NCBI GenBank assembly: GCA_964467655.1
Contig: CAYXSN010000003.1
Span: 34,714 to 98,713 of the forward strand
From: an uncultured Candidatus Saccharimonadales bacterium
GTDB lineage: Bacteria; Patescibacteriota; Saccharimonadia; UBA4664
DNA: 64,000 nucleotides
Direction of reading: 5' to 3'
Below are positions 25,995-63,247 of the stretch, in pieces. The number at the start of each line of letters is the position of its first letter. Positions within the stretch are counted from its first letter, which is position 1. Under the pieces are notes generated by a model. That model made no database searches and was not told the origin of the DNA. It saw only the letters and a program-made list of their open reading frames with translations. Made by a program: the position numbers and the translations under genes.

Positions 25995-26016
25995 TGCAAC
26001 GCTAGAACACGATTTA

Positions 26017-26460
26017 GTGGAGTTTGGTGCCCAACCGGCCAGCGTAATAAATGTTGATCCCTTTCCATCTCCCGACCAACCAGACGCCCCGAAACCGCGC
26101 GACCGTATCATCCAAGCTGACAGCGCCGATCCAAACTTGTTGCAGCATAGTGAACTTGCTCCAGGTTCTGCCGATGAAGTGTTGGCGCTGTATTCGGTGC
26201 CATTTTATCTTACCAGCGGCGAACAGATATCGCAGATGTTGCATAACGGCGTGGATTTGTTAGCTCCTGGCGGAAACTTTCGCCTCTGGCCAGTTAACTT
26301 TAATGCCAATGGCGCCACGCCTGAAGCACTCCAAGAGCGCAAACAGTATTTACTTCATACGCTCAAAGTATTATCAGCCCAAGGTCTGCAAATATCCATT
26401 GTTTTCAATGGTAATCGCGGTGACACCTTAATTATCCATAAACCAAAGACCACCGGATAG
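26017..26460 (+). CDS. Hypothetical protein (147 aa); possible 3' half of a frameshifted gene
   Basis: GTG start. Its frame is open back to 25966, overlapping the end of the previous ORF. Confidence 0.4.
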   Translation: MEFGAQPASVINVDPFPSPDQPDAPKPRDRIIQADSADPNLLQHSELAPGSADEVLALYSVPFYLTSGEQISQMLHNGVDLLAPGGNFRLWPVNFNANGATPEALQERKQYLLHTLKVLSAQGLQISIVFNGNRGDTLIIHKPKTTG

Positions 26461-26710
26461 CGCCACATCCAAATGTCGGGACTAAACAGGGGATTATCCG
26501 CTCGTATTTTTTCGTATCATCGGCTTCAAAGTTTTTAGTATATATAATCCCAACCCAATAATCACCGGTACACTCAAGCGAAAATCATGACTGCGGCCGC
26601 AATCAGAAGATGTAGTCCTCAAACCTCATTGTCGGCCGGGAAGGGCCGACAATGAGAGGACACATACAAGCATCCTATAAGGAACAGAGCGGTGCTACAC
26701 TAAAATCACT

Positions 26711-27832: not shown

Positions 27833-27836
27833 AGTC

Positions 27837-44652: not shown

Positions 44653-45096
44653 TCAGCCGGTACTCTTAGCCAAGGCGCTAATCACGAACTGGACCAGGGC
44701 AAACGAGATAACAGCTACCACGATACCAATGACGGCGTAAAGGATAGTGTTTTTAGCCTGCTCAACATTGCTCTTCTCACCCTGAGAGATAACGTAGCGC
44801 AAACCGCCGATGATCAGGAAGATGACTGATACGGCACCTACCAGGAACACTAAAGTGTTGGCCACCGTCTGGAAGACGCCGCCTTCGGCGAACAGGTTGT
44901 TGCTCGTACCGTTAGCCTTGGCACAACTGGCACCCGAGTTCAATGGGTCTGCCGAATCGAAGCCGTCAGAACAAGCGGCATACGCCGGGGCGCTCACAGC
45001 CACTGCTGCCGCTACCGTGCCAAACCCGAAGCCAAAGACTAGGGCCAGAGCCTGCAGCGACAACGCTGTTTTCTGGGTTAATGACATGATACTCAT
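44653..45096 (-). CDS. VirB2/TrbC-like pilin-family protein, paralog 1 (signal peptide plus two transmembrane helices)
   Basis: Signal peptide, two Cys residues, then the conserved core LIIGGLRYVISQGE...AKNTILYAVIGIVVA shared with the three downstream paralogs. Confidence 0.6.
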   Translation of the reverse strand: MSIMSLTQKTALSLQALALVFGFGFGTVAAAVAVSAPAYAACSDGFDSADPLNSGASCAKANGTSNNLFAEGGVFQTVANTLVFLVGAVSVIFLIIGGLRYVISQGEKSNVEQAKNTILYAVIGIVVAVISFALVQFVISALAKSTG

Positions 45097-45522: not shown

Positions 45523-45837
45523 TTAACCAGAATAAAAATCAAACCCGTCGCCAACGTTATGGGTTATAAACCACACAATCATATAAGCCGATGCCGCCAA
45601 TACAATGCCAACTACGGCGTACAAAATGGTGTTCTTGGCCGCCTTAGCTTTGCTGGGGTCGCCTTCAGAAAGAGTAAACTGCACACCCCCATACAATAGA
45701 GCTATCAACGCCAAGCCTCCGATAAGCCCCATGAGCATAAGAGTAAGATTGCTCAGACCACCGCCGATAGTATTTACATCTGTCGGCAAACCAACTTCAT
45801 CAGAGGAAATAGTGGCAGCCAGTTTCAACAAGTTCAT
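45523..45837 (-). CDS. VirB2/TrbC-like pilin-family protein, paralog 3
   Basis: LLYGGVQFTLSEGDPSKAKAAKNTILYAVVGIVLA core. 104 aa. Confidence 0.55.
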   Translation of the reverse strand: MNLLKLAATISSDEVGLPTDVNTIGGGLSNLTLMLMGLIGGLALIALLYGGVQFTLSEGDPSKAKAAKNTILYAVVGIVLAASAYMIVWFITHNVGDGFDFYSG

Positions 45838-46211
45838 CCGGCAATGCCTTTCGTCACAAAATCAACCACTGCATAGGCACCGATCAAGAGCACCAAACCG
45901 ATCACCAGATTGGTCAGAATGTCTTTGGCCCGCTTCACTCGACCGGGATCGCCCATAGAAGTTACATAATATATTGCCGCCACGATGATCATAATGACTG
46001 CCAGCGCCCCTGAAAGGGCAATCAGAATCCTCAAGAGATTGCCCACCAAAACAAAAGCATCCGACACCGCCTTCAGATGGACATTACCTGAGGCATCACA
46101 GTTCAAACCGTCCCATAAACTGGGCAGGCCACCGGTTGTAGTGCCGCACGCTCCGACGGCTTCATCTGCTGGCAGTGCCATAGGCCTCATTATAGGAAGG
46201 GGCGATAGCAA
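45834..46211 (-). CDS. VirB2/TrbC-like pilin-family protein, paralog 4
   Basis: AAIYYVTSMGDPGRVKRAKDILTNLVIGLVLL core, two Cys in the N-terminal region. Overlaps paralog 3 by 4 bp. Confidence 0.55.
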   Translation of the reverse strand: MLSPLPIMRPMALPADEAVGACGTTTGGLPSLWDGLNCDASGNVHLKAVSDAFVLVGNLLRILIALSGALAVIMIIVAAIYYVTSMGDPGRVKRAKDILTNLVIGLVLLIGAYAVVDFVTKGIAG

Positions 46212-46241: not shown

Positions 46242-49200
46242 ATGAAGTCGAGGTGGACTCTCATTGCGCTTATGGCGTGGGCCATTGTGGCACCAGCGCT
46301 CGTTGTTGTTATGCGTCCAGAAACCGCTCAAGCGGGAACACCAGCCTCCATCTTGCCGACCACATGTAACTGGACCAATACCACAACAATTACATGTAGT
46401 GGGTATCCTCAAGATGCCAGTCTAACTGTCACCTTTACACCCGACACGAGAAATCCATCAAACCCTCAACGCAGCTACAATGGCGGTACTGTCGGTACGC
46501 CAGGCGATGGAGGCACATACCAGTCTATTGAAAACGTCAGCGCCAACGGTACCAGTGGCCAATACACCGTCGATGGAACATCGCTCGGAGCCATCACGAT
46601 TGGTAATCAGGCAGCCTCAGGCCGGCCGGTCAACGCCGTCACGCCTGCCGATGCCAATGATGGTGCCGCCGATCCCGACACGGCCGTCAAATGTGACGCC
46701 GGCAAAGGCTTCACGTGGCTCATTTGCGGCACCATCGAGTGGGCCCTCAATGTGATCGATTGGATCAGAAACACCGTGCTCATCCCCATGCTCCAGCAAA
46801 AACCGTTCGACGAAGCTTCACCAGATATCGAAGCCCTCAAAAGCGTCTGGGCGGGCATGCGCAACATCGCCAGCATCGTTCTCATCCTGCTCTTCTTGCT
46901 TATTATCTTTGGGACGGCCATTGGCTACGACAACTACACCATCAAGAAAACCCTGCCCCGCCTAGTAGCCGGCGCCATCCTCATGCCATTGTCCTGGTAC
47001 ATCTGCGTCTTGCTGGTTGACCTCGGCAACATCCTAGGTGTCGGGCTCAAGGATTTAACGGCCCCCTTCATCCCTACACCGATCATTGATTTTAATTCAC
47101 CGATTTCCGAAGCTGTCTACAGCGTCGGTGGTGGTATTTTGCTCGGTGTCACTGGCTTTACCGCCTACACTGGCATGCTCTGGCCGGTATTGCTAGGCAT
47201 GGTCGTTGGCTTGGCCGGCGCCTTTCTCACCCTGGTACTGCGCAACATCTTGATTCTCGTCTTAACGGCCATTAGCCCTTTGGCAATGCTCGCCTACATA
47301 TTGCCCAATACCAAGAAATTCTATGACATGTGGCTGAGCAATTTCCTGCGCTTGATCCTCATGTTCCCTTTTATTATCTTGTTATTCCAAGCTGGCCGCC
47401 TATTTGCCGCCATCGCCGGAGCTGGCACCAATCCTATAAACACAATCTTTGCTCTTGTCGGACTGATGCTACCACTATTCTTAGTACCTTGGAGCTTTAA
47501 GACAGCTGGTCAAGCGTTGTCATTCGGTAGAGGCTACATCGATAAAGCTACTGGCATGGGCAAGCGGTACGGTTCAGACAAAATTGGCAACGCGATTAAG
47601 CGTCAGAGAGACAAAACCCGTGAAGCCAACAAAGCTCTTCGCCAGCATAACGCTATCCAGCGAGCAAAAGACATCGACAAAGAGGCCCCCACCAACCTCG
47701 GAGGTAAACTATCCAATAACGTCCGTCAACGAGTCGCCATGAAAAAAGCCGGGCATGGAGGCTTCCTTGGTGGCAAGGGTAATGTACTGCAGCAGCAAAA
47801 GTTTGAATCAGCGTACAGTGAAGCCGCCGCCACACAAGGCAAGATCGAGGCCGCCAAACTGGCTGGCGCTACCGGCACTAGCGAAACACACAAACAGCGC
47901 ATCGAAGCCGAAACCGCCATGGCACTCAAAGGCATTACCGACGGCCGGGCCAATCGTGCAGGATTCATGCAAGCTGTCGGCGAAGCCAATGGAGCCGAAC
48001 TTCCAGACAAAATGATCAGCTTCGCCCAGGCTAGTTACGCCGCCGGCACCGAATCCAGCCGTAAGAGCAATGCCAAGCTCCTCGGCACAGGAACCGGCGT
48101 TCAAGCCGCTGCCGCTGCGGGCGGTTTAGCTTCAACGGGGGCAATCGTCGCAGACGCCAGAGAAACCCAGATTGATAGCCTCAGTGACGAAAAAGGCCAG
48201 GTGGAAGGCCGCCTGATTGGTCAAAGGCACCTTGAGGACGTTGAACTCCAACGAACTGGCGTTAATCCGGCCACGGCAACGACGGCCCAAAGAGAAGCAG
48301 TCCAAAATAGGTTGCAACGCTATCGCCAAACCGATGCCCGCGTCAAAGCACGAGATACTGTACTTGAAGAAGGCGGGACCAAACGTCAGAGCCAAGCCGA
48401 TTTTACAACTCATGGATACCAAGATGTTGAGGAAGTTGAGGGTTCCGCTGCCCTCGAGCAACGTAGTAAGCTATCTACCACTCGCCAAGTCCGCCGCCAA
48501 CGCGTGGCCATCCAGGGTACAGCCGAGGGTGGCATGAGCGACGCAGATATTGAAATGGCGGCCAGTCGTGAAGCTCGCGAGAGCATTGGCGCCCAGGTCA
48601 TGAAGCAAAGGGTAGGCAACGAGACTGAGAGAGCCGACTTGGCTTCAGGTGACGCTACCCGTCGACCAACCCTCACCAACTCACTGATTGCCGCCCGAGG
48701 CCGGGCCGAAGAAAGCGCTTCCGCTGAGAGCGCCCAACGCACGGCCTACGTCAGATCTGCTCTTGGATACGAAAGCGAAAAACCATCTCGGCCATCGCTC
48801 GAAGAACGTATCCAAGATGCCTCTTTCAAAGCCACAACAGACCAGCGCACCAAAGACCTATCAGTCGGTGAGCGTCTCAGCGAAATCAGCAAGGCCGAAG
48901 ACCGGGTCCTTTTGAGCCAAAAAATCGATCCGGCTACCGCCTCAGCTGGTCAACGAGCCGATGCCAGGGCGAGCATTAGTGGCAAAATTGCCATCCAGGG
49001 CTCAGGGGAAGCCGGTTACAAAATGCGCATGGACATCGCCAAAGCCCGCGGCGAAGTCGAGGGCTTCGAAAAAGGCGTTAAGCAGCTCCAAATCGAAGAA
49101 ACTGCCAAGAACCTGCGCGAGAAAGCCATCGACGCCCATCTGGCTGCCAACACCGGCGCCACCAGAGCCGAAGCCGAAGAGGCTGTCGACAGCAATCCGG

Positions 49201-50633
49201 CCAACGATTTCAAGCGCGAGGCCGAACACAACGTTGAAGCTCTAGCCGCCGGCGCTCCGGCCCATCCCGATACTGTCACCTCGGACCAGGCCAGCCGCAT
49301 GTACCACGACGCTGGCGCCGAAAGCGCCTACACCTCAGCTGCCCAAGCCCAAGCCAATTCCATCGGCCAAGCCGTCGGTAAGGGACAGTCGGTCACAGCT
49401 GCGGTTGCTAACCGTGCGTCGACTAACCTCCTAGAGCTCGCCCGCGCCCACGGAGCAGCTCGTGGCATCACGAATGATGACCAAGCCATGGAGTCGTTCC
49501 TTGATGAACAAGTTCGCCTGACAGGCAGTGGCACGCCTGGTGTAGCCGCCGACCGCGAACAAGCCCGCCAGGCTTTACTCACGCAAATGGCCGCACAGGC
49601 TCAATCGGAAGTCATTTCTGCCGCTACGTTGGCAGGCATCGATAGCGGTGTCCGCAGTGAGGCAGCGGCCCAAGGACAACTTATCTCACAGGAAGAATCC
49701 TACAATTCGCCGACTAAATCCACAGCAGCTGATCAGCTAGAAATGGCTCGAAGAGACGCCAGTACAAACCTGGCCAGCAAAGAAGGAACCGACCAAGCCC
49801 GTTCACGCCAGCCCAAACTGGATTACTCGACAACAGTTGAGTCAACCAGGAAAGAAGCTCTTGACAAGTTCTTTGCTCAGAGAGTCCAAGAATCGGGCCG
49901 CAAATTCGTGATAGATGCCAACACCGGCAAACCAACTCCCGACCGAATCGATACTGCAGCGCCAACCAAAGATAACCAAGCCTCACTTCGTAAAATGGCA
50001 GAAGAAGCCTTCGACACGGGCGACTACGAGACCTTCGCAGCCTGCACCAATGCTTTGGGTCAAAACGGCAGTGGACGTGATATCGTCAGGGAGATTATTG
50101 AATCGAAGTTCGGATACGATGATAAGAACCGTATCAATCCTACCATCGCTGATCAGATCCGCAAAACAGCCAAAGCTAACGGCAACCCTGAATTCGACCC
50201 CGAATCATTCTTTAGTGCTGCAGTTTCGCGAATCAACAAAGATAAAGCACCATACTTATTTAAACCACGGGACGCCGCTTTTGGTAAACTACCTTCAAAT
50301 GAATTTGCGGCTCTCGATGACCGCGGCAAAATGCAGTACTTCCAGTGGGCAAGTGGCAAAGTTGGTACGACCGATGAAGCAAAGATCAGAGGTGAAGCCG
50401 TTTCCAATATGCACGAATCGGTCACCAACAAATCTCTCAAGCCCAATCCGGGCAACGCTGATTTTGATGCCATGTACCGCTACCTCTATGAGATTGATCC
50501 CACTACTAAGGCGGTTATAGGGCCAAATGCAGATAATATGAAGGCTTTTGAGGCACAATTTGGAGGGAATACTGTCAAATTCGGCCAAGCTATCGCCGAT
50601 ATTGAACGCGGCTTTAAATCACATAATGCCTAA
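46242..50633 (+). CDS. VirB6/TrbL/TraG-like polytopic membrane protein with a ~1000-aa Ala/Glu/Arg/Gln-rich C-terminal extension
   Basis: 1463 aa. N-terminal signal peptide, a Cys-containing ectodomain (~170 aa), 6-7 transmembrane helices (~aa 200-460), then a long charged low-complexity tail. Transcribed divergently from the pilin genes. Confidence 0.55.
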   Translation: MKSRWTLIALMAWAIVAPALVVVMRPETAQAGTPASILPTTCNWTNTTTITCSGYPQDASLTVTFTPDTRNPSNPQRSYNGGTVGTPGDGGTYQSIENVSANGTSGQYTVDGTSLGAITIGNQAASGRPVNAVTPADANDGAADPDTAVKCDAGKGFTWLICGTIEWALNVIDWIRNTVLIPMLQQKPFDEASPDIEALKSVWAGMRNIASIVLILLFLLIIFGTAIGYDNYTIKKTLPRLVAGAILMPLSWYICVLLVDLGNILGVGLKDLTAPFIPTPIIDFNSPISEAVYSVGGGILLGVTGFTAYTGMLWPVLLGMVVGLAGAFLTLVLRNILILVLTAISPLAMLAYILPNTKKFYDMWLSNFLRLILMFPFIILLFQAGRLFAAIAGAGTNPINTIFALVGLMLPLFLVPWSFKTAGQALSFGRGYIDKATGMGKRYGSDKIGNAIKRQRDKTREANKALRQHNAIQRAKDIDKEAPTNLGGKLSNNVRQRVAMKKAGHGGFLGGKGNVLQQQKFESAYSEAAATQGKIEAAKLAGATGTSETHKQRIEAETAMALKGITDGRANRAGFMQAVGEANGAELPDKMISFAQASYAAGTESSRKSNAKLLGTGTGVQAAAAAGGLASTGAIVADARETQIDSLSDEKGQVEGRLIGQRHLEDVELQRTGVNPATATTAQREAVQNRLQRYRQTDARVKARDTVLEEGGTKRQSQADFTTHGYQDVEEVEGSAALEQRSKLSTTRQVRRQRVAIQGTAEGGMSDADIEMAASREARESIGAQVMKQRVGNETERADLASGDATRRPTLTNSLIAARGRAEESASAESAQRTAYVRSALGYESEKPSRPSLEERIQDASFKATTDQRTKDLSVGERLSEISKAEDRVLLSQKIDPATASAGQRADARASISGKIAIQGSGEAGYKMRMDIAKARGEVEGFEKGVKQLQIEETAKNLREKAIDAHLAANTGATRAEAEEAVDSNPANDFKREAEHNVEALAAGAPAHPDTVTSDQASRMYHDAGAESAYTSAAQAQANSIGQAVGKGQSVTAAVANRASTNLLELARAHGAARGITNDDQAMESFLDEQVRLTGSGTPGVAADREQARQALLTQMAAQAQSEVISAATLAGIDSGVRSEAAAQGQLISQEESYNSPTKSTAADQLEMARRDASTNLASKEGTDQARSRQPKLDYSTTVESTRKEALDKFFAQRVQESGRKFVIDANTGKPTPDRIDTAAPTKDNQASLRKMAEEAFDTGDYETFAACTNALGQNGSGRDIVREIIESKFGYDDKNRINPTIADQIRKTAKANGNPEFDPESFFSAAVSRINKDKAPYLFKPRDAAFGKLPSNEFAALDDRGKMQYFQWASGKVGTTDEAKIRGEAVSNMHESVTNKSLKPNPGNADFDAMYRYLYEIDPTTKAVIGPNADNMKAFEAQFGGNTVKFGQAIADIERGFKSHNA

Positions 50634-50735: not shown

Positions 50736-51560
50736 ATGGGACAATACACCGTACCGCAAAACGTTGAAGCCGAAGACCATATCTTAGGCCCGCTAACGTT
50801 CAGGCAGTTCATCTACATGATGATCGGCCTGGGCTGGGTGATTATTACCTTCGCCTTGTTCCGCAAACTGATTGCGGCCTTCATTGTCATTGGTGTGCCA
50901 CCGACCATTTTGTTCATGCTGCTAGCTTTCTTCAGACGCGACGGCCAGGACTTCGAGCATTTACTGGTAGCTGTGGTCGGCTTTTTTGCCGCTCCCCGCC
51001 AGCGCTTGTGGATCAAAGAAGAAACCATCGAAACCTTCCACATCACGCCCACAGCCAAACAGGCCGAAATCACCCAACGTAACCCACAGCTAGTCATCAG
51101 TGAACTCGAGAAGTTGGCCGTGCTCATTGACTCCCGGGGCTGGAACCTGCCGACTGCCCCCGAGGTCACGCCTCAGCTCATCATGCCCAGCACACCGGCC
51201 TCGGCCCGCATCGTCCAGCCAGACAATACTCCCTCAAACATCACCGCTCCCCACACCGACATGCTCGACCTCCAAAACAGCCCGCTGGCCCAAAACCTCT
51301 CGGTGCTGCTCCAACAGTCAGCCGACCATGTCAAGCAGTCGGCGGTCAGCGGCATGACACCGGGTAGTGAACTACCCGCACCGACTCATTTTGCCACGCC
51401 CGTCAAAAGCATAAGCGGCGTGACAGGCCTCGCCCAAGACGATATACTACGGTTAGCTACCCAGAGTGAGGGAATGAGCATTGCCTCTGTTGCGGCCCAA
51501 GCCACGCGCTTGAGCCCAGACAGTGGCGCAAATGTGGAGCCAGTTGCCAATGCCAGCTAA
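50736..51560 (+). CDS. Small membrane protein (two N-terminal transmembrane helices; VirB3/PrgI-like position) with a Pro/Ser-rich tail
   Basis: FIYMMIGLGWVIITFALF and FIVIGVPPTILFMLLAFF helices lie directly upstream of the VirB4 ORFs. The VirB3 assignment rests on position only. Confidence 0.4.
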   Translation: MGQYTVPQNVEAEDHILGPLTFRQFIYMMIGLGWVIITFALFRKLIAAFIVIGVPPTILFMLLAFFRRDGQDFEHLLVAVVGFFAAPRQRLWIKEETIETFHITPTAKQAEITQRNPQLVISELEKLAVLIDSRGWNLPTAPEVTPQLIMPSTPASARIVQPDNTPSNITAPHTDMLDLQNSPLAQNLSVLLQQSADHVKQSAVSGMTPGSELPAPTHFATPVKSISGVTGLAQDDILRLATQSEGMSIASVAAQATRLSPDSGANVEPVANAS

Positions 51561-52284
51561 TTCAGCCAGCAAAACCGGGAAAAGCACCCAACAAACGCTT
51601 TTGATTTCCGAAATCAAAGATGGCGTGGTAGTTTTGCGTGACGGCTCCATTAGAGGCGTCATCCTCGGGAGTGCCATCAACTTTGAGCTCATGAGCAGTC
51701 AGGAGCAACAAGGCATCGAGATGGCCTACCAGAGCTTCCTCAACTCACTTCATTTCCCAATCCAAATTGTCATTCGTTCAGAACGCATCGACCTGTCAGC
51801 CTACATCGACAGGATGCAAGCCAAGCGCACCGAGCAATCAAACGAGTTGTTGGGTGCCCTCATGGACGATTACATCGCCAATGTTAAATCGCTGGTCGAT
51901 GAGGTCAACATTATGGACAAGCAGATCTACATTGTGGTGCCATATTTCCCCGATGTAGCCACAGGCAAATCACCGGCGCTCGTCAAAAACATCAAAAATG
52001 CATATAGCACCCCACCAGACATTACGATCACCGAAGAAGAATTCAAGGCCTACAAACAAGAATTGTCAGAACGGATGGCCTTGGTCTCGAGCGGCCTCGG
52101 CCAGATCGGCATCAGGGCGCTGGCACTTGGCACCCAAGAACTAGTCGATCTCTACTATACCTGGTACAACCCCGACATCGCCCACAACCAGAAGCTGATT
52201 GAAGCCGAGCAGCTCACGGCTCCCGTGGTCCTCAAAGGCGACGGCCGAGCACCCCACACCACCATTGAGGGAGGTCCTTTCTGA
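51523..52284 (+). CDS. VirB4/TrbE-family N-terminal domain, encoded as a separate ORF
   Basis: LLISEIKDGVVVLRDGSIRGVILGSAINFELMS...GIEMAYQSFLNSLHFPIQIVIRS matches the VirB4 N-terminal region. Its stop overlaps the next start (TGATG). Confidence 0.55.
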   Translation: MAQMWSQLPMPANSASKTGKSTQQTLLISEIKDGVVVLRDGSIRGVILGSAINFELMSSQEQQGIEMAYQSFLNSLHFPIQIVIRSERIDLSAYIDRMQAKRTEQSNELLGALMDDYIANVKSLVDEVNIMDKQIYIVVPYFPDVATGKSPALVKNIKNAYSTPPDITITEEEFKAYKQELSERMALVSSGLGQIGIRALALGTQELVDLYYTWYNPDIAHNQKLIEAEQLTAPVVLKGDGRAPHTTIEGGPF

Positions 52285-54173
52285 TGGGACTTTTTGGCCC
52301 ACCCAAACCCAAAGTTGATCCTGGGGCTCTGGCTGCCTACCAGCAAGCTATGGAGCAACGCGAGGCCGAGCTCATTTACCGCCAAGGCATCATCACCATG
52401 CGCGACCTCATTGCGCCTTCGTCATTGGAGATCGACGCCAATTACCTGAGGATTGGCAAACGCTATTGCAAGACGCTCTACGTGTATGGCTACCCCCGCC
52501 AGGTGTTCACCGGTTGGCTGTCGCCAATTATCAACCTCGATGAAATCATCGACATCTCACTTTACATCTACCCCGTGGAATCGCGCGTCGTTCTCGACAA
52601 CTTACGCAAAAAAGTCACCCAGATGGAAGCTTCGTATGCCATCAACGAAGAGAAAGGCAAAGTGCGCGACCCAGGCCTTGAAGCCGCGCTCCAGGACGCC
52701 GAAGAGCTCAGGGACAAGCTCCAAGTTGGCGAAGAGCGGTTCTTCAGGTTTGGTATGTATCTCACGATGTACGCCGATTCCATTGACGCCATGACCGATC
52801 TCAACCGCAAAATCGAGGGCATTTTCGGCCAGTCGCTGGTGTACACCAAAGCCGCCACCATGCAGATGGAGCAAGGCTTCAACTCCACGAGTCCCTTGGC
52901 CAACGACCAGCTCCAGATCTCGCGCAACATGGACACCGGAGCCCTGTCCACCAGCTTCCCGTTCACTTCAGCTGAACTATCTCGCAACGAAGGCATCCTT
53001 TACGGCCTCAACCGCCACAACAACGGCCTGGTGCTTTTCGACAGGTTCTCGCTCGAAAACGCCAACATGGTGGTATTCGCTAAATCCGGTGCCGGTAAAT
53101 CGTTTTCCATCAAACTTGAAGCCTTGCGCTCTCTCATGATGGGCATCGAAATTATCGTAATTGACCCCGAAAACGAGTACAAAACCCTCTGCGAAGCCGT
53201 TGGCGGCACCTATCTGCGCCTCAGTTTGGCCAGTCAAACTCGCATCAACCCCTTCGACCTGCCGCGAGTATTCGACCAAGATGAAGCCGACAACGCCCTC
53301 CAAGCCAACATTATTACACTGCACGGCCTGTTGCGCCTCATGATCGGTGGCGCCACAGTCTCAAACTCCACCGGCGCCACCAGCGTAACCTCCCTTACTC
53401 CCAGCGAAGACGCCGACCTCGATCTGGCAATCATCAATACCTACGCCCGCGCCGGTATCACCCGCGACCCCCTCACCCACAATGCCACCCCGCCCACCAT
53501 GAACGATCTCTACAATACTCTGGCCTCCATGACGGGCAACGGCCCCGACCTGGCCATGAGGCTACGCAAATTCACCACCGGCACGTTCTCGGGTATTTTT
53601 TCAGAGCAATCAAACGTCGAAATCAACAACCCCTTCCTGGTATTCAACATTCGCGACCTCGAAGACGAACTACGGCCCATCGGCATGTACATCGTGCTCA
53701 ACTACATCTGGAACAAGGTCAAATCAGATCGTCGCAAACGCATCCTAGTAGTCGACGAAGCCTGGCAACTTATGAAGTACGACGACTCAGCCGCCTTCAT
53801 GTTTAGCCTGGCCAAACGGGCCCGCAAATACTTCCTCGGCCTCACCACCATCTCCCAAGACGTCGAGGACTTCTTAAGCAACAAAATGGGCCGGGCCGTG
53901 GTCGCCAACTCATCACTCCAGCTCTTACTCAAGCAAGCCCCTTCAGCCGTCGACATTATTGGCGAAACCTTCAAGCTCACGAACGAAGAAAAAGCCAGGC
54001 TCACCGAATTCCCGGTGGGAGAAGGCTTATTCTTCGCTGGACTCAATCACGTCATCATCAGAGTCCTGGCGTCCGAAACCGAAGCCAGCCTCATTAGCAC
54101 CAATCCAGCCGACAAAGGTCAGGCGCCATCAGCCCCCACTGAAACATCAGCGCCAGCGGAACAAGGAGCATAA
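52284..54173 (+). CDS. virB4: Type IV secretion/conjugation ATPase VirB4 (TrbE/TraE/PrgJ-like), central and C-terminal ATPase region
   Basis: Walker A FAKSGAGKSFSIK and Walker B ILVVDEAWQLM. The VirB4 middle region (LIAPSSLEIDANYLRIGKRYCKTLYVYGYPRQVFTGWL) is also present. 629 aa. Confidence 0.88.
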   Translation: MGLFGPPKPKVDPGALAAYQQAMEQREAELIYRQGIITMRDLIAPSSLEIDANYLRIGKRYCKTLYVYGYPRQVFTGWLSPIINLDEIIDISLYIYPVESRVVLDNLRKKVTQMEASYAINEEKGKVRDPGLEAALQDAEELRDKLQVGEERFFRFGMYLTMYADSIDAMTDLNRKIEGIFGQSLVYTKAATMQMEQGFNSTSPLANDQLQISRNMDTGALSTSFPFTSAELSRNEGILYGLNRHNNGLVLFDRFSLENANMVVFAKSGAGKSFSIKLEALRSLMMGIEIIVIDPENEYKTLCEAVGGTYLRLSLASQTRINPFDLPRVFDQDEADNALQANIITLHGLLRLMIGGATVSNSTGATSVTSLTPSEDADLDLAIINTYARAGITRDPLTHNATPPTMNDLYNTLASMTGNGPDLAMRLRKFTTGTFSGIFSEQSNVEINNPFLVFNIRDLEDELRPIGMYIVLNYIWNKVKSDRRKRILVVDEAWQLMKYDDSAAFMFSLAKRARKYFLGLTTISQDVEDFLSNKMGRAVVANSSLQLLLKQAPSAVDIIGETFKLTNEEKARLTEFPVGEGLFFAGLNHVIIRVLASETEASLISTNPADKGQAPSAPTETSAPAEQGA

Positions 54174-54179
54174 GAGGAA

Positions 54180-57100
54180 ATGGCACTGCGTTCTGCCGCC
54201 GGTCTCAAATCTAGCTCCGGCATGGAGCCACCCCGCCAGACGTTCAAAGATGCTCTGGTAGCCCAGAAAGCTTCAAGTAGCCAGAAAACAACTACCGCCC
54301 AAAAGCCGGTTATGACGCAAATGTCACCGATGGGCGGCAGTCAAACCTCCAAGCCCGACACCATCACTAGACCCCGTAATGAATCAATCAACGAACCCAA
54401 TACGGCGTCCAATACCAGCATCGCACCTTCGTCTCAGGCCGCCGACCTCAAAACCGGAGATAGCAAATTCGATGCCGTCCACGGCGACAACCGCGGTCAG
54501 CAAATGGTCGCCAACGCCGGCACCGCCCGGCCCGAAGCCAATGACGACGCCTGGGCCTCACCCGACGCCACGGCATCCTCCAATGCTGGTGGCCCACCAG
54601 ACTCGGGTGGAAAAGCGGGCGTCATGTCTCCGGGCGCCGATCCAAACCGTGCCAGTCAATCTAGAATACCTGGCAATGATGCCGAGGCCCGAGCCAACTA
54701 CGCCAACAACGTCAGTAACGGCCCGGTCGGCCGCCGGATTGCCGGCAAGACGTTCGATTTTGCCAACCGTCACCGTAAATCGCTGATCTTTGGCGGCGGC
54801 GGCATGGGTATTGTCCTAGCGTTAATCTTTGCCACGCTTGCCTTCTTGCCCCTCAAACTTGAATCATTCATGAATAACGTTATCAGCAACGAAGGCAAGC
54901 GGATGGAGCATTACGCCACGCGGCGCGCCGAGATCATGACCTACCGCTACCTCATGAACGCCGCCAACGGCACTATTGAATCAGACCCTTTGTATACCAG
55001 CTCCAATATCGTCAGGATGATGTGGGGTAACTTCCAGAAAGACAGGTTTATCGAGAAACTCCAGACTTCCAAAGGCATCACAGTGGAAAGGGGTGGCAGC
55101 GCCGGCAGTATCAGATTCACGACCGCCAGTGGCCAAGTAGTGGAAGCGAGTAATCTGAGTCAGCTCATGGACGTCCTCAAAAGCAATCCAGCCGGTACTG
55201 GCATTGAGGCAGAAATTGGCAAGTTCATGGAAAACGAGTACAAATGGTTCCGTATCTTTCAGCGCCGCTCTATCAGATACTACTTAGCCAAAGCTTACGG
55301 TATCAAACGCTGGAGCATCGACAAAAAAGAAGACAAGGTTGACCCGAAGTCCAAGGTACACAGCACCGAAATCCAGGCGCGCGAACTGGCCCTCGATGGA
55401 CCAAATGAAAAAACCATCAATGCCATCGGTTGTGTCGCCGCACCCGAAAACTGCAACGGCGAAGACTCCAATCGCCGCAGTACCGACCCCAATGGCGAAT
55501 CAACAATCGACCCGCCAAATACCACTGGGGGCAATGAAGAAGAGTCCAAAGCTCAGGCCGAAGCCAAAAAAGGTTTGCTTGAGCGCTACCGCAACCTCAA
55601 AACTACTGCCGGCAACAAAATTCTAGCGACCCTCACCGAACTGATTGGTAGTGAAGTGATAGCGAAAGGTATTCTGAAAGCCGTACCCTTCATCGGCTGG
55701 ATCTCGTTTGCGGCCGACATCGACCATTTCATCTGGGGTGGTAGCTGGTCGCAAGTCGGCATCAATCTGCGCGCCTTGCAATACGTAAGCGTCGCCCAAA
55801 CCTGGGCTACCCTCAAAGACCAGATGAAGGCCGATGAGCTGACTGCCAGCCAAATCAATGTGCTTATGCTTATGCTCGACGGCATTGAAAAATCAAACGC
55901 TTTCCAGCGCACCAATTCAGCCAATACCAATGGCGGTGTCACCATCCCGGAAGAAAAACGGGTAGGCAGCGATGGTGCCTTTATCGATCCCGAACCGGCC
56001 GGTCAGGGTATTTGCGGCATTACCTATCCACTGTCAAACGAATACCGGGGCATCCCGGTAAACGGCTTGTCTATTACCAACTACGAACCCTGGACGCTCC
56101 TGTACCGTCGTGTAGTCACAACACCACTGCTGATTGGCGCCGGCAACGTTCACTTTGACCTCTGTACTTTCAGGGCCGTATTCCAGCGTTTTATGGGCGT
56201 CATCATGCTTGGGGTCAAGAACATTCCGGGTGTCGGGCAGTTTATCTCTACATTCCAGACCCTCACTCAGTTTGTTATGCAAACCGAAATCATTCAGCGC
56301 CTCGTCGAGCAGGGCAGCCACTACGTCACGGCCTTCCTCGAACGTGTCTTCGGACTGGTATACAACGGCGAATGGGGGGCGCCACTCGCCAACACCATTG
56401 ACGGTGGCTGGGAAGTAATCACAAATGCCGTCACCCGTGACCACATGGGTGGTAAGGCCATTAGCTATAGCCTCAGCTATGAACAAACCACCCAGTACGC
56501 TCTTGAGGACCAACAGAAACTCAATGCCGAGGGACCCTTTGCTAGTCTGCTCGCTTGGAATACGCCAGGCTCAACCGGCTCTAAACTACTGGCAGCCTTA
56601 CCATCAACCCCATCAGCTCTCGCCAACCGTTTTACCGATCTCGCCAGCAGCCTCTTTTTACACCCCGCCAGTTATTTCAGTAAATTAGCGTACAACTTTA
56701 GTACCGGTAGTCTGGCCGTCGATCCAGCCAGCTTGCGCTCTCCCGCAGGCGTCATGCACATTGGCTTTGATGCTGCCGAGGTCAACGACAGCAACATCTA
56801 CATTGCCGTCAAAGACATCAACGGACCACCAGTCAATGGCGCCTACCCCGGCCAGCCCGACGGCCGCATCGATGAGTACGACTGCATCGAAGGGAGCGGT
56901 AGTGGCGAGAGCTTGCACATAGTCGGTACTACTGACAGGGCCGATGACATCACCAAAACCAACCGCTGCCTCTACGATACCTCAGTGGCCCTACCGCTCT
57001 GCTCCGGCGGCTCCTCCAATGACGACGGGGGACTGGGCCAAGGCGGCGATCCCGGTCCATGTGGCCGTGTCGCTGGCACCTCAGCTACAGGCCAAGCCGG

Positions 57101-57977
57101 CAGCCCGCTCACCGCCAACTGGATGTCCGGCGCCAGCTTCATGCAGGGCGATTACAACGGTACACCCAAGACAACTGGTTTCGGCACGTGGCGTAACAGT
57201 TCACCGGTCACCATTGTGGGCACCTGGTGCGACAAGCCAGGCTGTACCGATGGATCCGCCGCCAATGATTACGACTCATTCAACGGCGCCATGGACATCG
57301 CCATCGGCGGCATCTTCAAACAAAACGGCGAATCCTGGTCGGCCGCCGCCGGCGGAGCCTACAATTCTCGTTGGCAAGGTGCCATCAGCAACATCGCCTC
57401 CCACCGCCAGGGTAAAGGCCTCACATTCATCAGGTTTGCTCACGAAGCCAATATGAACTTCTCAGACTGGAGCGTCATGCCGGGTGAAGAAGCCAACTAC
57501 ATTACTACTTTCTGCAACGTAGCCAACATGGCGCACGCCGCCGGTCTCAAGGTGACCTGGTCGCTCAATGACGGCACACTGGGCGGCGCTGCCGGCCCTG
57601 CCACCATGTATCCCGGTGACGCCTGCGTCGACGTCGTGGGACCCGACACCTACGACTGGGACACGCCTCAGGTATCGGTCGTAAATGGTCAGGTTACCGG
57701 TATCGAATCATGGCGCCAGTTTGCCCTAAGCCACAACAAGCCCCTAGCCTTCCCCGAATGGGGCGCCAACAACACCCAAGGCCAGACCAAAGATAACCCC
57801 GCCTACATCACCGCCATGAACACGTTCATGGCTACCAACGGCGGATCAGGCCCAGGCCAGTTCATCTATGACATCTATTTCAATGAAGACGAGAGTGGCT
57901 ACCGCATCGGATTATGGCCAACCGCCGATGTCCCGCAGATGGCTAACACCTATAAAGCTCTCAAGTGGGGGAATTAA
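54180..57977 (+). CDS. Large single-pass surface protein with a C-terminal glycoside-hydrolase-like (clan GH-A, GH26/GH5-like) TIM-barrel domain
   Basis: 1265 aa. Disordered N-terminal ~210 aa, transmembrane helix GGGGMGIVLALIFATLAFLPL, and a ~1000-aa exodomain. C-terminal FIRFAHEANM (candidate acid/base Glu) and LAFPEWG (candidate nucleophile Glu). Confidence 0.5.
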   Translation: MALRSAAGLKSSSGMEPPRQTFKDALVAQKASSSQKTTTAQKPVMTQMSPMGGSQTSKPDTITRPRNESINEPNTASNTSIAPSSQAADLKTGDSKFDAVHGDNRGQQMVANAGTARPEANDDAWASPDATASSNAGGPPDSGGKAGVMSPGADPNRASQSRIPGNDAEARANYANNVSNGPVGRRIAGKTFDFANRHRKSLIFGGGGMGIVLALIFATLAFLPLKLESFMNNVISNEGKRMEHYATRRAEIMTYRYLMNAANGTIESDPLYTSSNIVRMMWGNFQKDRFIEKLQTSKGITVERGGSAGSIRFTTASGQVVEASNLSQLMDVLKSNPAGTGIEAEIGKFMENEYKWFRIFQRRSIRYYLAKAYGIKRWSIDKKEDKVDPKSKVHSTEIQARELALDGPNEKTINAIGCVAAPENCNGEDSNRRSTDPNGESTIDPPNTTGGNEEESKAQAEAKKGLLERYRNLKTTAGNKILATLTELIGSEVIAKGILKAVPFIGWISFAADIDHFIWGGSWSQVGINLRALQYVSVAQTWATLKDQMKADELTASQINVLMLMLDGIEKSNAFQRTNSANTNGGVTIPEEKRVGSDGAFIDPEPAGQGICGITYPLSNEYRGIPVNGLSITNYEPWTLLYRRVVTTPLLIGAGNVHFDLCTFRAVFQRFMGVIMLGVKNIPGVGQFISTFQTLTQFVMQTEIIQRLVEQGSHYVTAFLERVFGLVYNGEWGAPLANTIDGGWEVITNAVTRDHMGGKAISYSLSYEQTTQYALEDQQKLNAEGPFASLLAWNTPGSTGSKLLAALPSTPSALANRFTDLASSLFLHPASYFSKLAYNFSTGSLAVDPASLRSPAGVMHIGFDAAEVNDSNIYIAVKDINGPPVNGAYPGQPDGRIDEYDCIEGSGSGESLHIVGTTDRADDITKTNRCLYDTSVALPLCSGGSSNDDGGLGQGGDPGPCGRVAGTSATGQAGSPLTANWMSGASFMQGDYNGTPKTTGFGTWRNSSPVTIVGTWCDKPGCTDGSAANDYDSFNGAMDIAIGGIFKQNGESWSAAAGGAYNSRWQGAISNIASHRQGKGLTFIRFAHEANMNFSDWSVMPGEEANYITTFCNVANMAHAAGLKVTWSLNDGTLGGAAGPATMYPGDACVDVVGPDTYDWDTPQVSVVNGQVTGIESWRQFALSHNKPLAFPEWGANNTQGQTKDNPAYITAMNTFMATNGGSGPGQFIYDIYFNEDESGYRIGLWPTADVPQMANTYKALKWGN

Positions 57978-59260
57978 TAACAGCCATGCTCAAGCGTTTT
58001 ACCACCATTCTCGTCCTCGCACTTACAGCACAGCTGGCGTTTGCCCCGACTGCTAAAGCCATTTTCAACTACGACAATAAAGCAGTTACCAAAGAATACA
58101 TCTATTGGGACAACCGGGTGACTGCCGATTGCCCCAGCGCCACCGACCTGTCAGGAAACAGTCCTACCGGCACCGATTCGGCGGCAGCCGCTGCCCGCAA
58201 GAAAGTTATTTGGGATTTTCTTACAGCTCCCGGCCGTCTGACAGCCCCTCAAGCTGCTGGGGTACTGGCCAATATGACAGTTGAAAGTGCCCATACTTTT
58301 GATCCAACGATTGTGCAGGGCGGTACCTATAAAGCCACGCCTGAAGGCGTGAATAACGGTTACGGCATCGTGCAATGGACTCCCGGCACCAAACTACTGA
58401 AATATGCCGACATTGCCGCAAACCCCACGCTCGGAGGCAACCTCACCCGCCAGCTGAACGTCCTATGGGACCAGCTAACCAATGCGAGCTCGCCGTTACC
58501 GGAAAAGGCTGCCGGCGACGCCCTCAAAGCCACCACTACAGCCGAGCAAGCTGCCGTAGCCTTTATGATCGGGTATGAGCGGCCGGCCGACAAGTCACTG
58601 GATGCCCGAGACGGCCGCGCAGCCTTAGCCAACCCCATCCTCGTCGAAATGACCGGCGGCACCAGTGGCACGATTACGCCTCTAACGACCACAAATGGCA
58701 CTCCCGTCACCACATCATCAAGCTGCCCGTCGGCTACATCCCAAGCCAGCGCTAGCATTGATACAGCCCATATGTTTGAGTCATCAGTGAGTATCCAATG
58801 TGCTCCCGGCACAACTGATGCCGGCGTTCAAGACGGCTACCACAATGGTATCATGGTCAAGATCAGGGTCTGCGCCATACCAAACTTTCCATGCACCAAT
58901 GAAGAATGCCAGGAACTCGGCAATGGTCATGCCCTAGTGAACTCCCGAGCCTCTGGCGCAATCCTCAAGATGATTACCGACGCCATAGCTGCCCGTGATC
59001 AAGCAGGTAAGAGTTATCAGATCAACGCGTCATCAACCTTCCGTACTATGGCCCACCAGACAGCCCTCTATAATGCGCCTCACTCCGATCCAGTTGCCAA
59101 ACCCGGCTTCTCCAATCACCAGATGGGCCTAGCGATCGATTTCGGCTTCTGGAAAAATACCAATACCGGACTCTATGATTGGCTCAAAGCCAACGCCTCG
59201 CGATATGGCTACCAGCAACTGCCAAGTGAAGTTTGGCACTGGTCCACCAATGGTGGTTAA
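57965..59260 (+). CDS. Secreted bifunctional cell-wall hydrolase: phage-tail-lysozyme-like domain plus peptidase-M15 (VanY/D-Ala-D-Ala carboxypeptidase-like) domain
   Basis: Signal peptide MLKRFTTILVLALTAQLAFAPTAKA. N-terminal domain ANMTVESAHTFDP...GYGIVQWTPG. C-terminal domain SNHQMGLAIDF (SxHxxGxAxD) plus EVWHW (ExxH). Confidence 0.7.
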   Translation: MGELITAMLKRFTTILVLALTAQLAFAPTAKAIFNYDNKAVTKEYIYWDNRVTADCPSATDLSGNSPTGTDSAAAAARKKVIWDFLTAPGRLTAPQAAGVLANMTVESAHTFDPTIVQGGTYKATPEGVNNGYGIVQWTPGTKLLKYADIAANPTLGGNLTRQLNVLWDQLTNASSPLPEKAAGDALKATTTAEQAAVAFMIGYERPADKSLDARDGRAALANPILVEMTGGTSGTITPLTTTNGTPVTTSSSCPSATSQASASIDTAHMFESSVSIQCAPGTTDAGVQDGYHNGIMVKIRVCAIPNFPCTNEECQELGNGHALVNSRASGAILKMITDAIAARDQAGKSYQINASSTFRTMAHQTALYNAPHSDPVAKPGFSNHQMGLAIDFGFWKNTNTGLYDWLKANASRYGYQQLPSEVWHWSTNGG

Positions 59261-60786: not shown

Positions 60787-61083
60787 CTAAATCGAGCTGA
60801 TCGTAATCATTACCCTCACGCGCCCCGGCTGGCCAGGTACAGGGGTAGGGGAGCCACTCGTCTTCAAACCAGCCAGAGCCACCAGCTCCAGCTGACGCAT
60901 CCGCAACGCTCCAGCTACAGCCGCACTTGACGTCACGAGTCTTAAAGTTCCCTGGTGCCACTGACGGGCCCTCACTTTACCCGGATACCATTCATCCACC
61001 ACCTTTTGAACCACTTCCAACACATCCTGGCGGTCAAGCCCTAATTGCTGACGCTTGTGTTCAAAATAAGCCGGATCTATCAT
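60787..61083 (-). CDS. DUF721/DciA-like small protein downstream of recF
   Basis: 98 aa in the conserved dnaA-dnaN-recF-DUF721 position. Overlaps the recF stop by 4 bp. The sequence match is weak (KRQQLGL...LVTSSAAVAGALRMRQLEL). Confidence 0.45.
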   Translation of the reverse strand: MIDPAYFEHKRQQLGLDRQDVLEVVQKVVDEWYPGKVRARQWHQGTLRLVTSSAAVAGALRMRQLELVALAGLKTSGSPTPVPGQPGRVRVMITISSI

Positions 61084-62141
61084 ACTTCACCAGTCCAGAT
61101 CGTAGCGTGATCAGTCCTAAATTCCCTGGTCACGGCATCAGCATCGGTAGTCGTAATCACGGTCTGGTATCCTCCTAATCTATCAAGCAAATAAGCTCGT
61201 CGCTGTTTATCGAGCTCGCTAAAAACATCATCAAGCAAGAGGAGGGGACGCACCCCGGTCTGAGCCTGGGCATAGGCCAATTCAGCCAGCTTCAAAGCCA
61301 ACACCACAGTCCGAACTTCACCACGTGATGCCACATTGACGACTTCGCCGGTTTTAAATTTGGCACCAAAGTCTTCACGGTGGGGTCCGATAGTGGTAAA
61401 GCCGGCTGCAAAATCTCTATCCAATTGCCGCTCCAGTACCGTCAAAAAATCAGCTTCGTAATCACCCGATATGCTCGGTTGATACTCCAAAGCCACAGCC
61501 ACAGCCTCGCCAGCAATCTCCCGGTATAACTCGGGCAATTTACTGTTCACAATTTCTAGGTAACGCTGGCGCTTTTTGCAGATATCAACTGCCAACTCCG
61601 CTAGTTTAACGTTCCAAGCAAACAGTTGGTCGCGGGGTGGCAACGACCACTTCTTGGCATCAAGTAGAGCATTGCGCTGCTTGAGTACTCGCCGGTACTG
61701 CATGAGGGCCACCAAATAGAGTCGATCGGTCTGACAGAGCACAAAATCAAGGTACCGCCGCCGGCCTTCTGGAGGACCCTGAAGCATACCCAATTCAGTT
61801 GGTTCAAACAACGTCACCTGCAACCGGCCGATATGAGCGGCCAGCGTCCGCTTCAGACCGTCATGGGTCACTTTTTTGGTCACACCACCACTAAAACTGG
61901 CAGCCAAAGCCATCTCCATTTCACCCCCCGCCACCAACCGGTAAAAATCAGCCCCATGATGAACCACATCCCGATCGCGAGCCCGAAAGCTTTTGGTGGA
62001 AGCCAACACGTAAAGTGCCTCCAATAGGTTCGTTTTACCAGTAGCATTCGGCCCCACCACCAGAGTTACTTCGGGATGCAATTCAAATTTGGCGGCCGCA
62101 TACGACCTGAAGTTCGCCAGCTCCAGTTGGGAGATGATCAC
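61080..62141 (-). CDS. recF: DNA replication and repair protein RecF
   Basis: Walker A VVGPNATGKTNLLEAL and C-terminal signature/Walker B LLLLDDVFSELD. 353 aa. Confidence 0.92.
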   Translation of the reverse strand: MIISQLELANFRSYAAAKFELHPEVTLVVGPNATGKTNLLEALYVLASTKSFRARDRDVVHHGADFYRLVAGGEMEMALAASFSGGVTKKVTHDGLKRTLAAHIGRLQVTLFEPTELGMLQGPPEGRRRYLDFVLCQTDRLYLVALMQYRRVLKQRNALLDAKKWSLPPRDQLFAWNVKLAELAVDICKKRQRYLEIVNSKLPELYREIAGEAVAVALEYQPSISGDYEADFLTVLERQLDRDFAAGFTTIGPHREDFGAKFKTGEVVNVASRGEVRTVVLALKLAELAYAQAQTGVRPLLLLDDVFSELDKQRRAYLLDRLGGYQTVITTTDADAVTREFRTDHATIWTGEV

Positions 62142-63247
62142 GTGCGCAGCGGCATAATGATGTGCAGGTAATCATCGGCCGCCTCCTCGCCAGCTGGAGA
62201 CAGTACGCAGGCCTTGTCCTTACCGCTCGTCGCAAACATGACGGTCGAGGTCTTCATGACGGCTAGGGCGTCGGTAAGATACCGGGCATTGAGCGACACC
62301 ACGGCATCATCACCACTTACTTCGCAATCGGCCGCCGAAGTATTGCCACCCACCTCTGAATCACCGCTCATCACCCGCACCTGACCCTCTGCTTGAATCT
62401 CGAGCTTCACACTACCGGCACTTTCCCGCGCAAACAAGCTGGCCACTTTAGTGATTCTCGTAAACTCACTCACTTCAATCTCAAACGAAGTCTCAGCCTG
62501 CTCAGGTAAAATACCACGATAAGGAGGAAACTGCCCCTCAATCAACCGTGACACCAACTCGATATCACCCAGCCGCCACATGACCTGGTTTTCATCCATG
62601 TATAATTCAACAGGCTCAGTAACATCAGCCAATAATCTCATTAGCTCCTGCATAGTCCGAGCCGGCACAATTACTTTGAGCTCTTCTTGAGGCGACTTCT
62701 CCAACGGCATCCGTTTTTCGGCCAGGCGGTACGAATCGGTCGCCACCAGATATAAATTGTCGTCCTCGGTATACAAATACACACCAGCCAACACCGGCCT
62801 GGCTTCATCCGCTGAAGCCGCTACCACTACCTGCACCAAGGCTTCCCGCAGCGCTGCCGCTTCTACAGTAAGTACCGGATCAGCTGTGATAGTGGGGATT
62901 TCAGGAAATTCCTCAGCCGCAATTCCGTTAATCTTCGATTCATAATTAGGTGCCTTCACCACTAAGACAGCGTCTTCAGCCATGAGCTCGATAGTGCCAT
63001 GAGGCAGACTCGAGACAAACTCACTCACAAGCCTAGCTGGCACCGTGACGGCTCCTTGCTCTTCTACCTTGGAGCCTACCCAATAGTTAATACCGATCTC
63101 AAGATTGGTCGCCGACAACCTCAAACGATTACCATCAGTTGCCAGTAAAACGTGTGACAGTACCGGCAGACTGGCTCTCGTTGATACTACCCGGCCGACG
63201 CTTGACAGAGCTTTGGACAAGTTCTCTTGTGTGAGGCTAAGTCTCAT
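62138..63247 (-). CDS. dnaN: DNA polymerase III beta sliding clamp
   Basis: 369 aa with three-domain clamp layout. N-terminus MRLSLTQENLSKALSSVGRVVSTRASLPVLSHVLL. Overlaps recF by 4 bp. Confidence 0.9.
   Translation of the reverse strand: MRLSLTQENLSKALSSVGRVVSTRASLPVLSHVLLATDGNRLRLSATNLEIGINYWVGSKVEEQGAVTVPARLVSEFVSSLPHGTIELMAEDAVLVVKAPNYESKINGIAAEEFPEIPTITADPVLTVEAAALREALVQVVVAASADEARPVLAGVYLYTEDDNLYLVATDSYRLAEKRMPLEKSPQEELKVIVPARTMQELMRLLADVTEPVELYMDENQVMWRLGDIELVSRLIEGQFPPYRGILPEQAETSFEIEVSEFTRITKVASLFARESAGSVKLEIQAEGQVRVMSGDSEVGGNTSAADCEVSGDDAVVSLNARYLTDALAVMKTSTVMFATSGKDKACVLSPAGEEAADDYLHIIMPLRT

Follow-up and report, generated by a model that had tools for sequence, protein, structure and literature searches.

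Is a VirB4 ATPase that is spread over two overlapping open reading frames (ORFs) a damaged gene, or a motor that is regularly made of two polypeptides? This question is raised by a type IV secretion system (T4SS) locus in a 64,000-nucleotide (nt) stretch of an uncultured Candidatus Saccharimonadales bacterium (assembly GCA_964467655.1, contig CAYXSN010000003.1, positions 34,714 to 98,713), referred to below as the window, where a shorter frame, ORF1, runs into a longer one, ORF2. The explanation that we consider the best overall, with a probability of about 0.8, is that the pair encodes a normal, functional two-polypeptide VirB4 motor of the Saccharimonadia chromosomal T4SS, in which the split is ancient and the subunits reassemble.

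Content of the two genes and position of the break

The features of the gene pair are as follows (P0386 is a compact single-chain VirB4 relative described below; aa, amino acids).

51550..52284, plus strand: ORF1, 244-aa TrsD-like or "TraC-like" protein, assigned to the first half of the VirB4 N-terminal domain
52267..52274, plus strand: Shine-Dalgarno-like GAGGGAGG in the 3' end of ORF1, 9 nt before the ORF2 ATG, read from the sequence
52282..52286, plus strand: TGATG stop/start overlap (TGA 52282-52284, ATG 52284-52286, base 52284 common to both)
52284..54173, plus strand: ORF2, 629-aa VirB4 body, assigned to the second half of the N-terminal domain and the C-terminal P-loop ATPase
53079..53102, plus strand: Walker A AKSGAGKS, ORF2 aa 266-273, located by translation and alignment to P0386
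53742..53759, plus strand: Walker B ILVVDE, ORF2 aa 487-492, located by translation and alignment to P0386

An earlier note on this DNA had described two ORFs in different frames, joined by TGATG so that the stop of the first overlaps the start of the second by one base, and this description is borne out: positions 52276-52289 read CCT TTC TGA / ATG GGA, base 52284 is shared, and ORF2 lies in the -1 frame relative to ORF1. The lengths given there need correction. ORF1 as first listed, 51523..52284 on the plus strand, has 253 aa from a GTG start, but most likely this start is nine codons too long and ATG 51550 is the true one, as homologs are 243-244 aa long and start with MPA(N/D)..., and the gene calls on identical contigs give 244 aa. 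The motif GGAG is found at -14 before this ATG. With it, ORF1 has 11 nt in common with the end of the PrgI gene upstream, and the combined length with ORF2 (629 aa from its ATG) is 873 aa, not 882.

ORF2 is classified unambiguously as a VirB4-type ATPase, so that the middle region and the Walker A/B ATPase are where the earlier note had placed them. It scores 358.4 bits (E 8e-107) with the NCBIfam model NF045971 (CD1110 family), above the curated cutoff of 325, and covers positions 185-730 of 752 of this model and 277-893 of 894 of VirB4_plasma; its residues 232-601 match PDB entry 4AG5, the Thermoanaerobacter VirB4's C-terminal domain, with E 1.4e-48. The Pfam domains are PF19044 (P-loop_TraG), PF12846 (AAA_10) and PF01935 (DUF87), and both Walker motifs are intact. 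With the proteobacterial models ORF2 stays below the cutoffs, TIGR00929 giving 92.8 bits against 643. As all model matches start approximately 185-280 positions into full-length models, ORF2 lacks the first ~200 VirB4 residues.

These residues are supplied by ORF1. Of the NCBIfam models it fits best the one for the standalone TrsD/TraD family, NF041427 (35.4 bits, E 9e-9; its aa 17-139 fall on positions 10-142 of 201), and by its sequence it would be a remote TrsD/TraD relative outside this curated subfamily. The same residues, aa 17-139, match positions 99-232 of 894 of VirB4_plasma (E 5.6e-6), and in the CD1110 model ORF1 takes up positions 8-118 of 752. The pair is not a single polypeptide of ~750-900 aa with N-terminal and ATPase domains, and covers the CD1110 model in two pieces, 8-118 and 185-730 of 752. 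Precomputed annotations assign the Pfam family PF26593 "TraC-like" to each of the 120 ORF1 homologs listed, to the 244-aa gene of contigs that share the junction unchanged, and to the N-terminal part of the fused P0386; a Pfam-A scan of ORF1 itself did not return it, the sole match being a sub-threshold TraC_F_IV.

PDB sequence searches with ORF1, both as a single sequence and as a profile (A2), yielded nothing meaningful, and comparison of folds alone was productive. An AlphaFold2 model of ORF1 built on a 72-sequence alignment has a predicted local distance difference test score (pLDDT) of 82.7, with the core above 90 (with only 27 close homologs in the alignment, the pLDDT was 52 and the model not usable). 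In a Foldseek search of the PDB with this model, the 14 best matches are without exception TrwK/VirB4 chains of R388 (E 4.6e-4 to 2e-2, probability 0.98-1.0), and lower matches are unrelated, with probability below 0.45; TrwK, PDB 7O41/8RTB, served as the reference for the VirB4 N-terminal fold. Since neither the entry restricted to the VirB4 C-terminal domain (4AG5) nor other P-loop ATPases are found among the matches, the fold match points to the VirB4 N-terminal domain. The alternative that ORF1 has no VirB4 N-terminal similarity and is a VirB8-like or otherwise unrelated protein is ruled out, as ORF1 matches the N-terminal part of full-length VirB4 models and has significant structural matches in the PDB with TrwK/VirB4 chains only.

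The relation of the halves is best seen on a single chain. A profile search of 1.84 billion cluster representatives identified P0386 (797 aa), in which positions 1-209 align to ORF1 aa 1-208 (42% identity, E 6e-44) and positions 207-787 to ORF2 aa 19-610 (48% identity). By this alignment, proposed in the earlier note as a check, ORF1 and ORF2 together tile one full-length VirB4, with no gap or overlap; nothing in the fused protein corresponds to the tail of ORF1 (aa 209-244) or to the head of ORF2 (aa 1-18). The structural N-terminal domain of TrwK comprises residues 15-400 and binds VirB3 (PMC9259494), and ORF2 aa 58 corresponds to position 238 of TIGR00929; the break, at about position 190-200, therefore falls within the N-terminal domain and not where this domain meets the C-terminal one.

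P0386 is encoded at 544-2937 of a contig (GCA_964615945.1, CAZTUR010000004.1; locus L082) in the order PrgI, VirB4, and adjoins rnpA/yidC/dnaA/dnaN. In another single-chain protein, P0354 (898 aa), both VirB4 parts are joined by a ~100-aa Pro/Ala-rich linker. Among the sequences found, such single-chain versions appear as rare relatives only, and they may be either ancestral or the result of a later re-fusion.

Conservation of the split

Independent sequencing projects (SRR6747781, ERZ27248706, DRR685535, SRR14234092, SRR20074301, SRR6747782 and others) have yielded at least 12 contigs with the exact 629-aa ORF2 protein, always in the order PrgI of 274 aa, a 244-aa protein and the 629-aa protein. 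The six loci examined at the junction come from six independent assemblies and agree in all of the 43 nt around it. A sister strain, represented by at least 21 contigs and with an ORF2 identity of 97%, has TAATG in the place of TGATG; the stop codon has changed and the overlap is kept. The stop of ORF1 falls in the same alignment column in 27 of 27 aligned sequences. Lengths are also stable: the best 120 homologs of ORF1 have 240-256 aa and the best 120 homologs of ORF2, 567-688 aa, and among the best 150 cluster representatives (50% identity) 148 have 122-478 aa and just two are of VirB4 length.

At larger distances we scanned one genome per GTDB species, which returned 80 loci, of which 76 have both genes. 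The split is seen in every one of these 76, with no fusion among them, in Saccharimonadia, Moranbacteria, Magasanikbacteria and other Patescibacteria, with ORF1 identity of up to 92% in Saccharimonadia and 39-45% in the other groups. Purifying selection acts on both ORFs, and the divergence of one is correlated with that of the other (r = 0.85, 65 loci); over these 65 loci the mean identity is 52% for ORF1, 65% for the N-terminal part of ORF2 and 73% for the ATPase part.

At the junction a one-base stop/start overlap, mostly TAATG, is seen in approximately 45 of the 76 loci, essentially those of Saccharimonadia (by a stricter count, the stop is TAA in 41, TAG in two and TGA in one), and a GGAG/GAGG/AGGA motif at -16..-7 of the ORF2 start in 51 of the 76, including nearly all Saccharimonadia ones. 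In distant Patescibacteria classes the genes are separated by spacers of 1-135 nt, and the frames vary.

Taken together, a genuine, conserved two-gene VirB4 is as good as certain. The earlier note was thus right to consider the split genuine, and the comparison with orthologous loci that it had proposed gives a uniform answer; its expectation that such a split would be unusual does not hold, the arrangement being the rule in Patescibacteria, present also in pSK41/pGO1-type plasmids, and already published as TrsD plus VirB4 (PMC12102498).

In four Saccharimonadia the junction carries insertions of 85-145 nt (L001 3489-3633, L008 4718-4856, L026 4733-4857, L036 4718-4802), which, inspected by eye, lie exactly between the ORF1 stop and the ORF2 start. 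In all four a Shine-Dalgarno sequence precedes ORF2; given the insertion and this motif, ORF2 is evidently translated separately there. The insertion of L001 is an element with inverted repeats flanked by a TAATGGG direct duplication, resembling a miniature inverted-repeat transposable element; that of L008 contains the inverted repeat CGCGTACCTGG/CCAGGTACGCG, and that of L026, tandem CGAATCACGAATTAAGAAT-like units. Judging from these sequences, small mobile or palindromic elements seem to target the ORF1/ORF2 overlap.

Two more observations concern individual relatives. In the closest complete genome found (L013, CP064960.1) the VirB4 body is frameshifted at about 5060-5080, at the A-run CGTAAAAAGTCACCC, and the protein is taken up again in a different frame (...NLRKK / VTQMEASY...); the probable cause is a homopolymer error of that assembly and not biology, and the window itself is intact. 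Many standalone ORF1 homologs have long Gln/Pro/Ala-rich low-complexity extensions, N-terminal of ~200 aa or C-terminal of ~100 aa, e.g., P0252 (478 aa), P0299 (452 aa), P0296 (421 aa) and P0241 (326 aa). The extensions of these four contain no Pfam domain, and the proteins are not PrgI fusions.

Reassembly of the motor and competing explanations

How would two polypeptides make one motor? The products of prgI, ORF1 and ORF2 are probably made together and in similar, roughly equimolar, amounts, as suggested by the 11-nt overlap of prgI with ORF1, the 1-nt overlap of ORF1 with ORF2 and the internal Shine-Dalgarno sequence. By homology, ORF1 would then dock non-covalently on the N-terminal ~230 residues of ORF2 and rebuild the VirB4 N-terminal domain. 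In R388, VirB3 wraps around this domain, which also provides the whole of the VirB4 dimer interface (PMC9259494), and the sequence of genes, prgI-ORF1-ORF2, would reflect that of the contacts. Reassembly in this specific form we hold to be fairly probable. The split behind it appears, from the sequences compared, to be ancient and common to the Patescibacteria classes and pSK41/pGO1-type Firmicutes plasmids.

Damage and recoding can be set aside on comparative data, by which sequencing error or pseudogenisation and programmed frameshifting were both rejected. That a recent frameshift mutation, pseudogenisation or a sequencing or assembly error has split a single VirB4, as the earlier note had allowed, could be argued only from the a priori expectation of one protein of ~800 aa and from the rare fused relatives (P0386 of 797 aa and P0354 of 898 aa), and its probability is negligible: the identical junctions recur in independent assemblies, the overlap is retained in the sister strain under another stop codon, the split persists down to 39% ORF1 identity, the position of the stop is conserved in the alignment, and the protein sequences of both ORFs are strongly conserved. 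A programmed -1 ribosomal frameshift at TGATG, yielding a fused VirB4 alone or beside the separate products, would fit the -1 frame of ORF2, a relation repeated in the ~45 Saccharimonadia loci with the overlap. Nevertheless it is very unlikely, since no slippery heptamer of the X XXY YYZ type precedes the stop (GGT CCT TTC TGA in the window, GCA CCA GTC TAA and similar in relatives) and ORF2 has its own ATG with a correctly spaced Shine-Dalgarno sequence. Moreover, the frame relation is not kept outside Saccharimonadia; other relatives have the two genes in the same frame, in the +1 frame, or 1-145 nt apart with stops, and the ORF1 tail and the ORF2 head are absent from P0386.

The alternative that deserves more attention is that ORF1 descends from a VirB4 N-terminus and is now a semi-independent T4SS accessory, such as an adaptor, a regulator, or a membrane or VirB3 tether, with a stoichiometry of its own. 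Several observations weigh against the reassembling two-polypeptide motor, and some of them fit such an accessory. In 65 of 65 loci ORF1 has changed more rapidly than ORF2, and its mean identity is lower than that of either ORF2 part, which would also suit a more independent, adaptor-like role; the long low-complexity tails (P0252, P0299, P0241) would be hard for a buried domain to tolerate; and the TrsD homologs of Gracilibacteria are usually not adjacent to virB4 (PMC12102498), so that strict co-expression is not universal. The structural match is also modest by TM-score (TMq 0.33-0.48 against TrwK, the aligned TrwK range not being reported by the tool), and both the physical association of ORF1 with ORF2 and actual translational coupling are inferred. 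As for a common origin with the Firmicutes split, the NF041427 score of ORF1 is far below the curated cutoff (35.4 against 200 bits), and the hhalign match of the ORF1 profile (A1) to TrsD of pSK41 is weak (probability 39.6%, E 3e-4, 81 columns). On the other hand, gene order and overlap with prgI and virB4 are conserved, the ORF1 core tiles without a gap onto the fused relatives, the divergences of the halves are correlated, and the extensions are terminal tails that leave the core intact. We therefore regard the accessory role as unlikely, and retain the motor of two reassembling subunits as the preferred reading.

A more speculative, and in our opinion doubtful, variant is that the freed VirB3-binding and dimerising subdomain gives the T4SS inner-membrane complex a stoichiometry or an order of assembly other than that of the R388 "hexamer of VirB4 dimers". 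For example, ORF1 could sit on only a subset of the ATPase subunits or act as an assembly checkpoint, and the single-chain relatives would be secondary re-fusions. If so, this would apply to the T4SSs of Patescibacteria and of pGO1-type plasmids, with ORF1 as the faster-evolving subunit, often with long disordered tails.

Genomic setting and known systems

The gene pair belongs to a tightly packed T4SS operon, which starts with a gene for a VirB6/TrbL-like protein and is accompanied by pilin genes on the opposite strand.

44653..45096, minus strand: VirB2-like T4SS pilin gene (PF18895 T4SS_pilin, E 5.7e-9)
45834..46211, minus strand: second VirB2-like T4SS pilin gene (PF18895 T4SS_pilin, E 2.2e-8)
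46242..50633, plus strand: VirB6/TrbL-like protein, 1463 aa, polytopic, first gene of the operon (PF19590 TrbL_3, precomputed on an identical gene elsewhere)
50736..51560, plus strand: PrgI-family (VirB3-like) membrane protein directly upstream of ORF1 (PF12666 PrgI, E 5.4e-13, 49.7 bits against a cutoff of 27)
54180..57977, plus strand: 1265-aa protein with no assigned family, 6 nt downstream of ORF2, same operon
57965..59260, plus strand: lysozyme and VanY-type peptidase, candidate VirB1-like cell-wall hydrolase (PF18013, E 3e-24; PF02557, E 1.6e-8)

The 1463-aa VirB6/TrbL_3-like protein consists of an N-terminal secreted region, a polytopic membrane core and a ~900-aa charged C-terminal region rich in Ala, Glu, Gln and Arg, for which no domain match was found; a Pfam scan of the window's own protein gave no match. 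Its length varies between strains, being 1593 aa in the near-identical contig L085. The 1265-aa protein encoded downstream of ORF2 has no Pfam match at E<=0.1 and one predicted transmembrane segment after a low-complexity N-terminus; the gene keeps its position in identical and sister-strain contigs (1239-1265 aa), and by these features the product may be a T4SS-associated surface or cell-wall protein.

The base composition of the window is uniform and it contains four tRNA genes, which indicates a chromosomal location; the GC skew is uniformly negative over all 64 kb, and recF and dnaN are found at 61080-63247 on the minus strand, at the right end. The T4SS is thus a chromosomal, origin-proximal one of a Saccharimonadia genome, its operon lying within ~10 kb of the presumed origin region. 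No relaxase was seen among the selected neighbouring ORFs scanned, the window not having been searched systematically for one.

The Patescibacteria T4SS is essential for the epibiotic lifestyle of Saccharibacteria, hence its subunit composition matters for structural or mechanistic models. The first half of the VirB4 N-terminal domain, missing from ORF2, is apparently the 244-aa "TrsD-like protein of unknown function", which is thereby given a concrete, testable role, and annotators are warned against calling such loci frameshifted pseudogenes or merging both genes. As a discovery this adds little: the split VirB4 is not new, since the gene pair, its distribution and the remote homology are already present in the literature and in NCBIfam and Pfam models, and the residual value lies in the functional assignment for TrsD-like proteins, the break within the N-terminal domain, the rare fused relatives and the junction insertions. 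The view of this pair as a split VirB4 is not prominent in the field, though the facts are published.

The closest known systems are those covered by a survey of Patescibacteria T4SSs (Quinonero-Coronel et al., 2025, Microb Genom; PMC12102498). TrsD is described there as remotely homologous to the VirB4 N-terminus and as the most abundant T4SS component in Patescibacteria, with 2,272 homologs, 1,664 of which adjoin virB4; among the MPF_FATA subclasses, TrsD is otherwise confined to the pGO1 subclass. The TrsD homolog of Ca. Southlakia epibionticum ML1 is essential, homologues of a peptidase and a lysozyme follow virB4 in S. epibionticum, and a T4SS near the origin is reported for some Patescibacteria (PMC12102498). 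The window agrees with this picture in its VirB2-like pilins, VirB6-like protein, PrgI/VirB3, TrsD-like protein, VirB4 and downstream lysozyme/peptidase, in the Saccharimonadia lineage, in the proximity to the origin and in the TrsD-like gene directly upstream of virB4; we see no substantive difference and consider it another instance of the same system. Three points do not come from the survey: the two ORFs tile fused relatives gap-free, the one-base overlap is conserved, and the ORF1 model matches TrwK in structure. The statement that TrsD is homologous to the VirB4 N-terminus is cited from this survey only, as "TrsD" is absent from the main text of Guglielmini et al. (2014).

The plasmids pSK41 and pGO1 (MPF_FATA; cf. 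TraC-TraD-TraE of pIP501) have the genes in the same order as prgI-ORF1-ORF2, namely a VirB3-like gene with two transmembrane segments, a TrsD of ~227 aa, and a VirB4-like ATPase of ~672 aa without the N-terminal ~200 residues. In pSK41, trsC (25492-25899) and trsD (25886-26569) overlap by 14 nt, and a 14-nt gap precedes trsE, the gene of the 672-aa DUF87 ATPase (26584-28602). ORF2 aa 41 aligns to aa 36 of TrsE (25% identity, E 2e-46), so that the split point is equivalent in the window and in pSK41. The differences are that pSK41/pGO1 encode a plasmid conjugation machine with a relaxase and a coupling protein, and that the sequences are very divergent; the Patescibacteria T4SS is chromosomal and thought to be repurposed (PMC12102498). 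A common origin of the two splits is, on the sequences at hand, plausible but not proven. A 2025 FEMS review of T4SS nomenclature describes traC of pIP501 as "immediately adjacent to traE(B4)" and does not discuss a TraD/TrsD-type gene (PMC12857230), while the related pSK41 has a gene of this type between those for the VirB3-like and VirB4-like proteins; models of Gram-positive T4SSs seem to overlook the detached VirB4 N-terminal piece.

Canonical single-chain VirB4 proteins (TrwK of R388, VirB4 of Agrobacterium, PrgJ of pCF10 and the CD1110 family) have the same domain content and order, and differ in being one polypeptide, whereas the version in the window is two, broken at ~190-200. The opposite event to this fission is found in the VirB3-VirB4 fusions of some conjugative systems, none of which has been found in Patescibacteria (PMC12102498); the VirB3/VirB4 N-terminal interface is thus a place where domains have fused and split repeatedly in the evolution of T4SSs.

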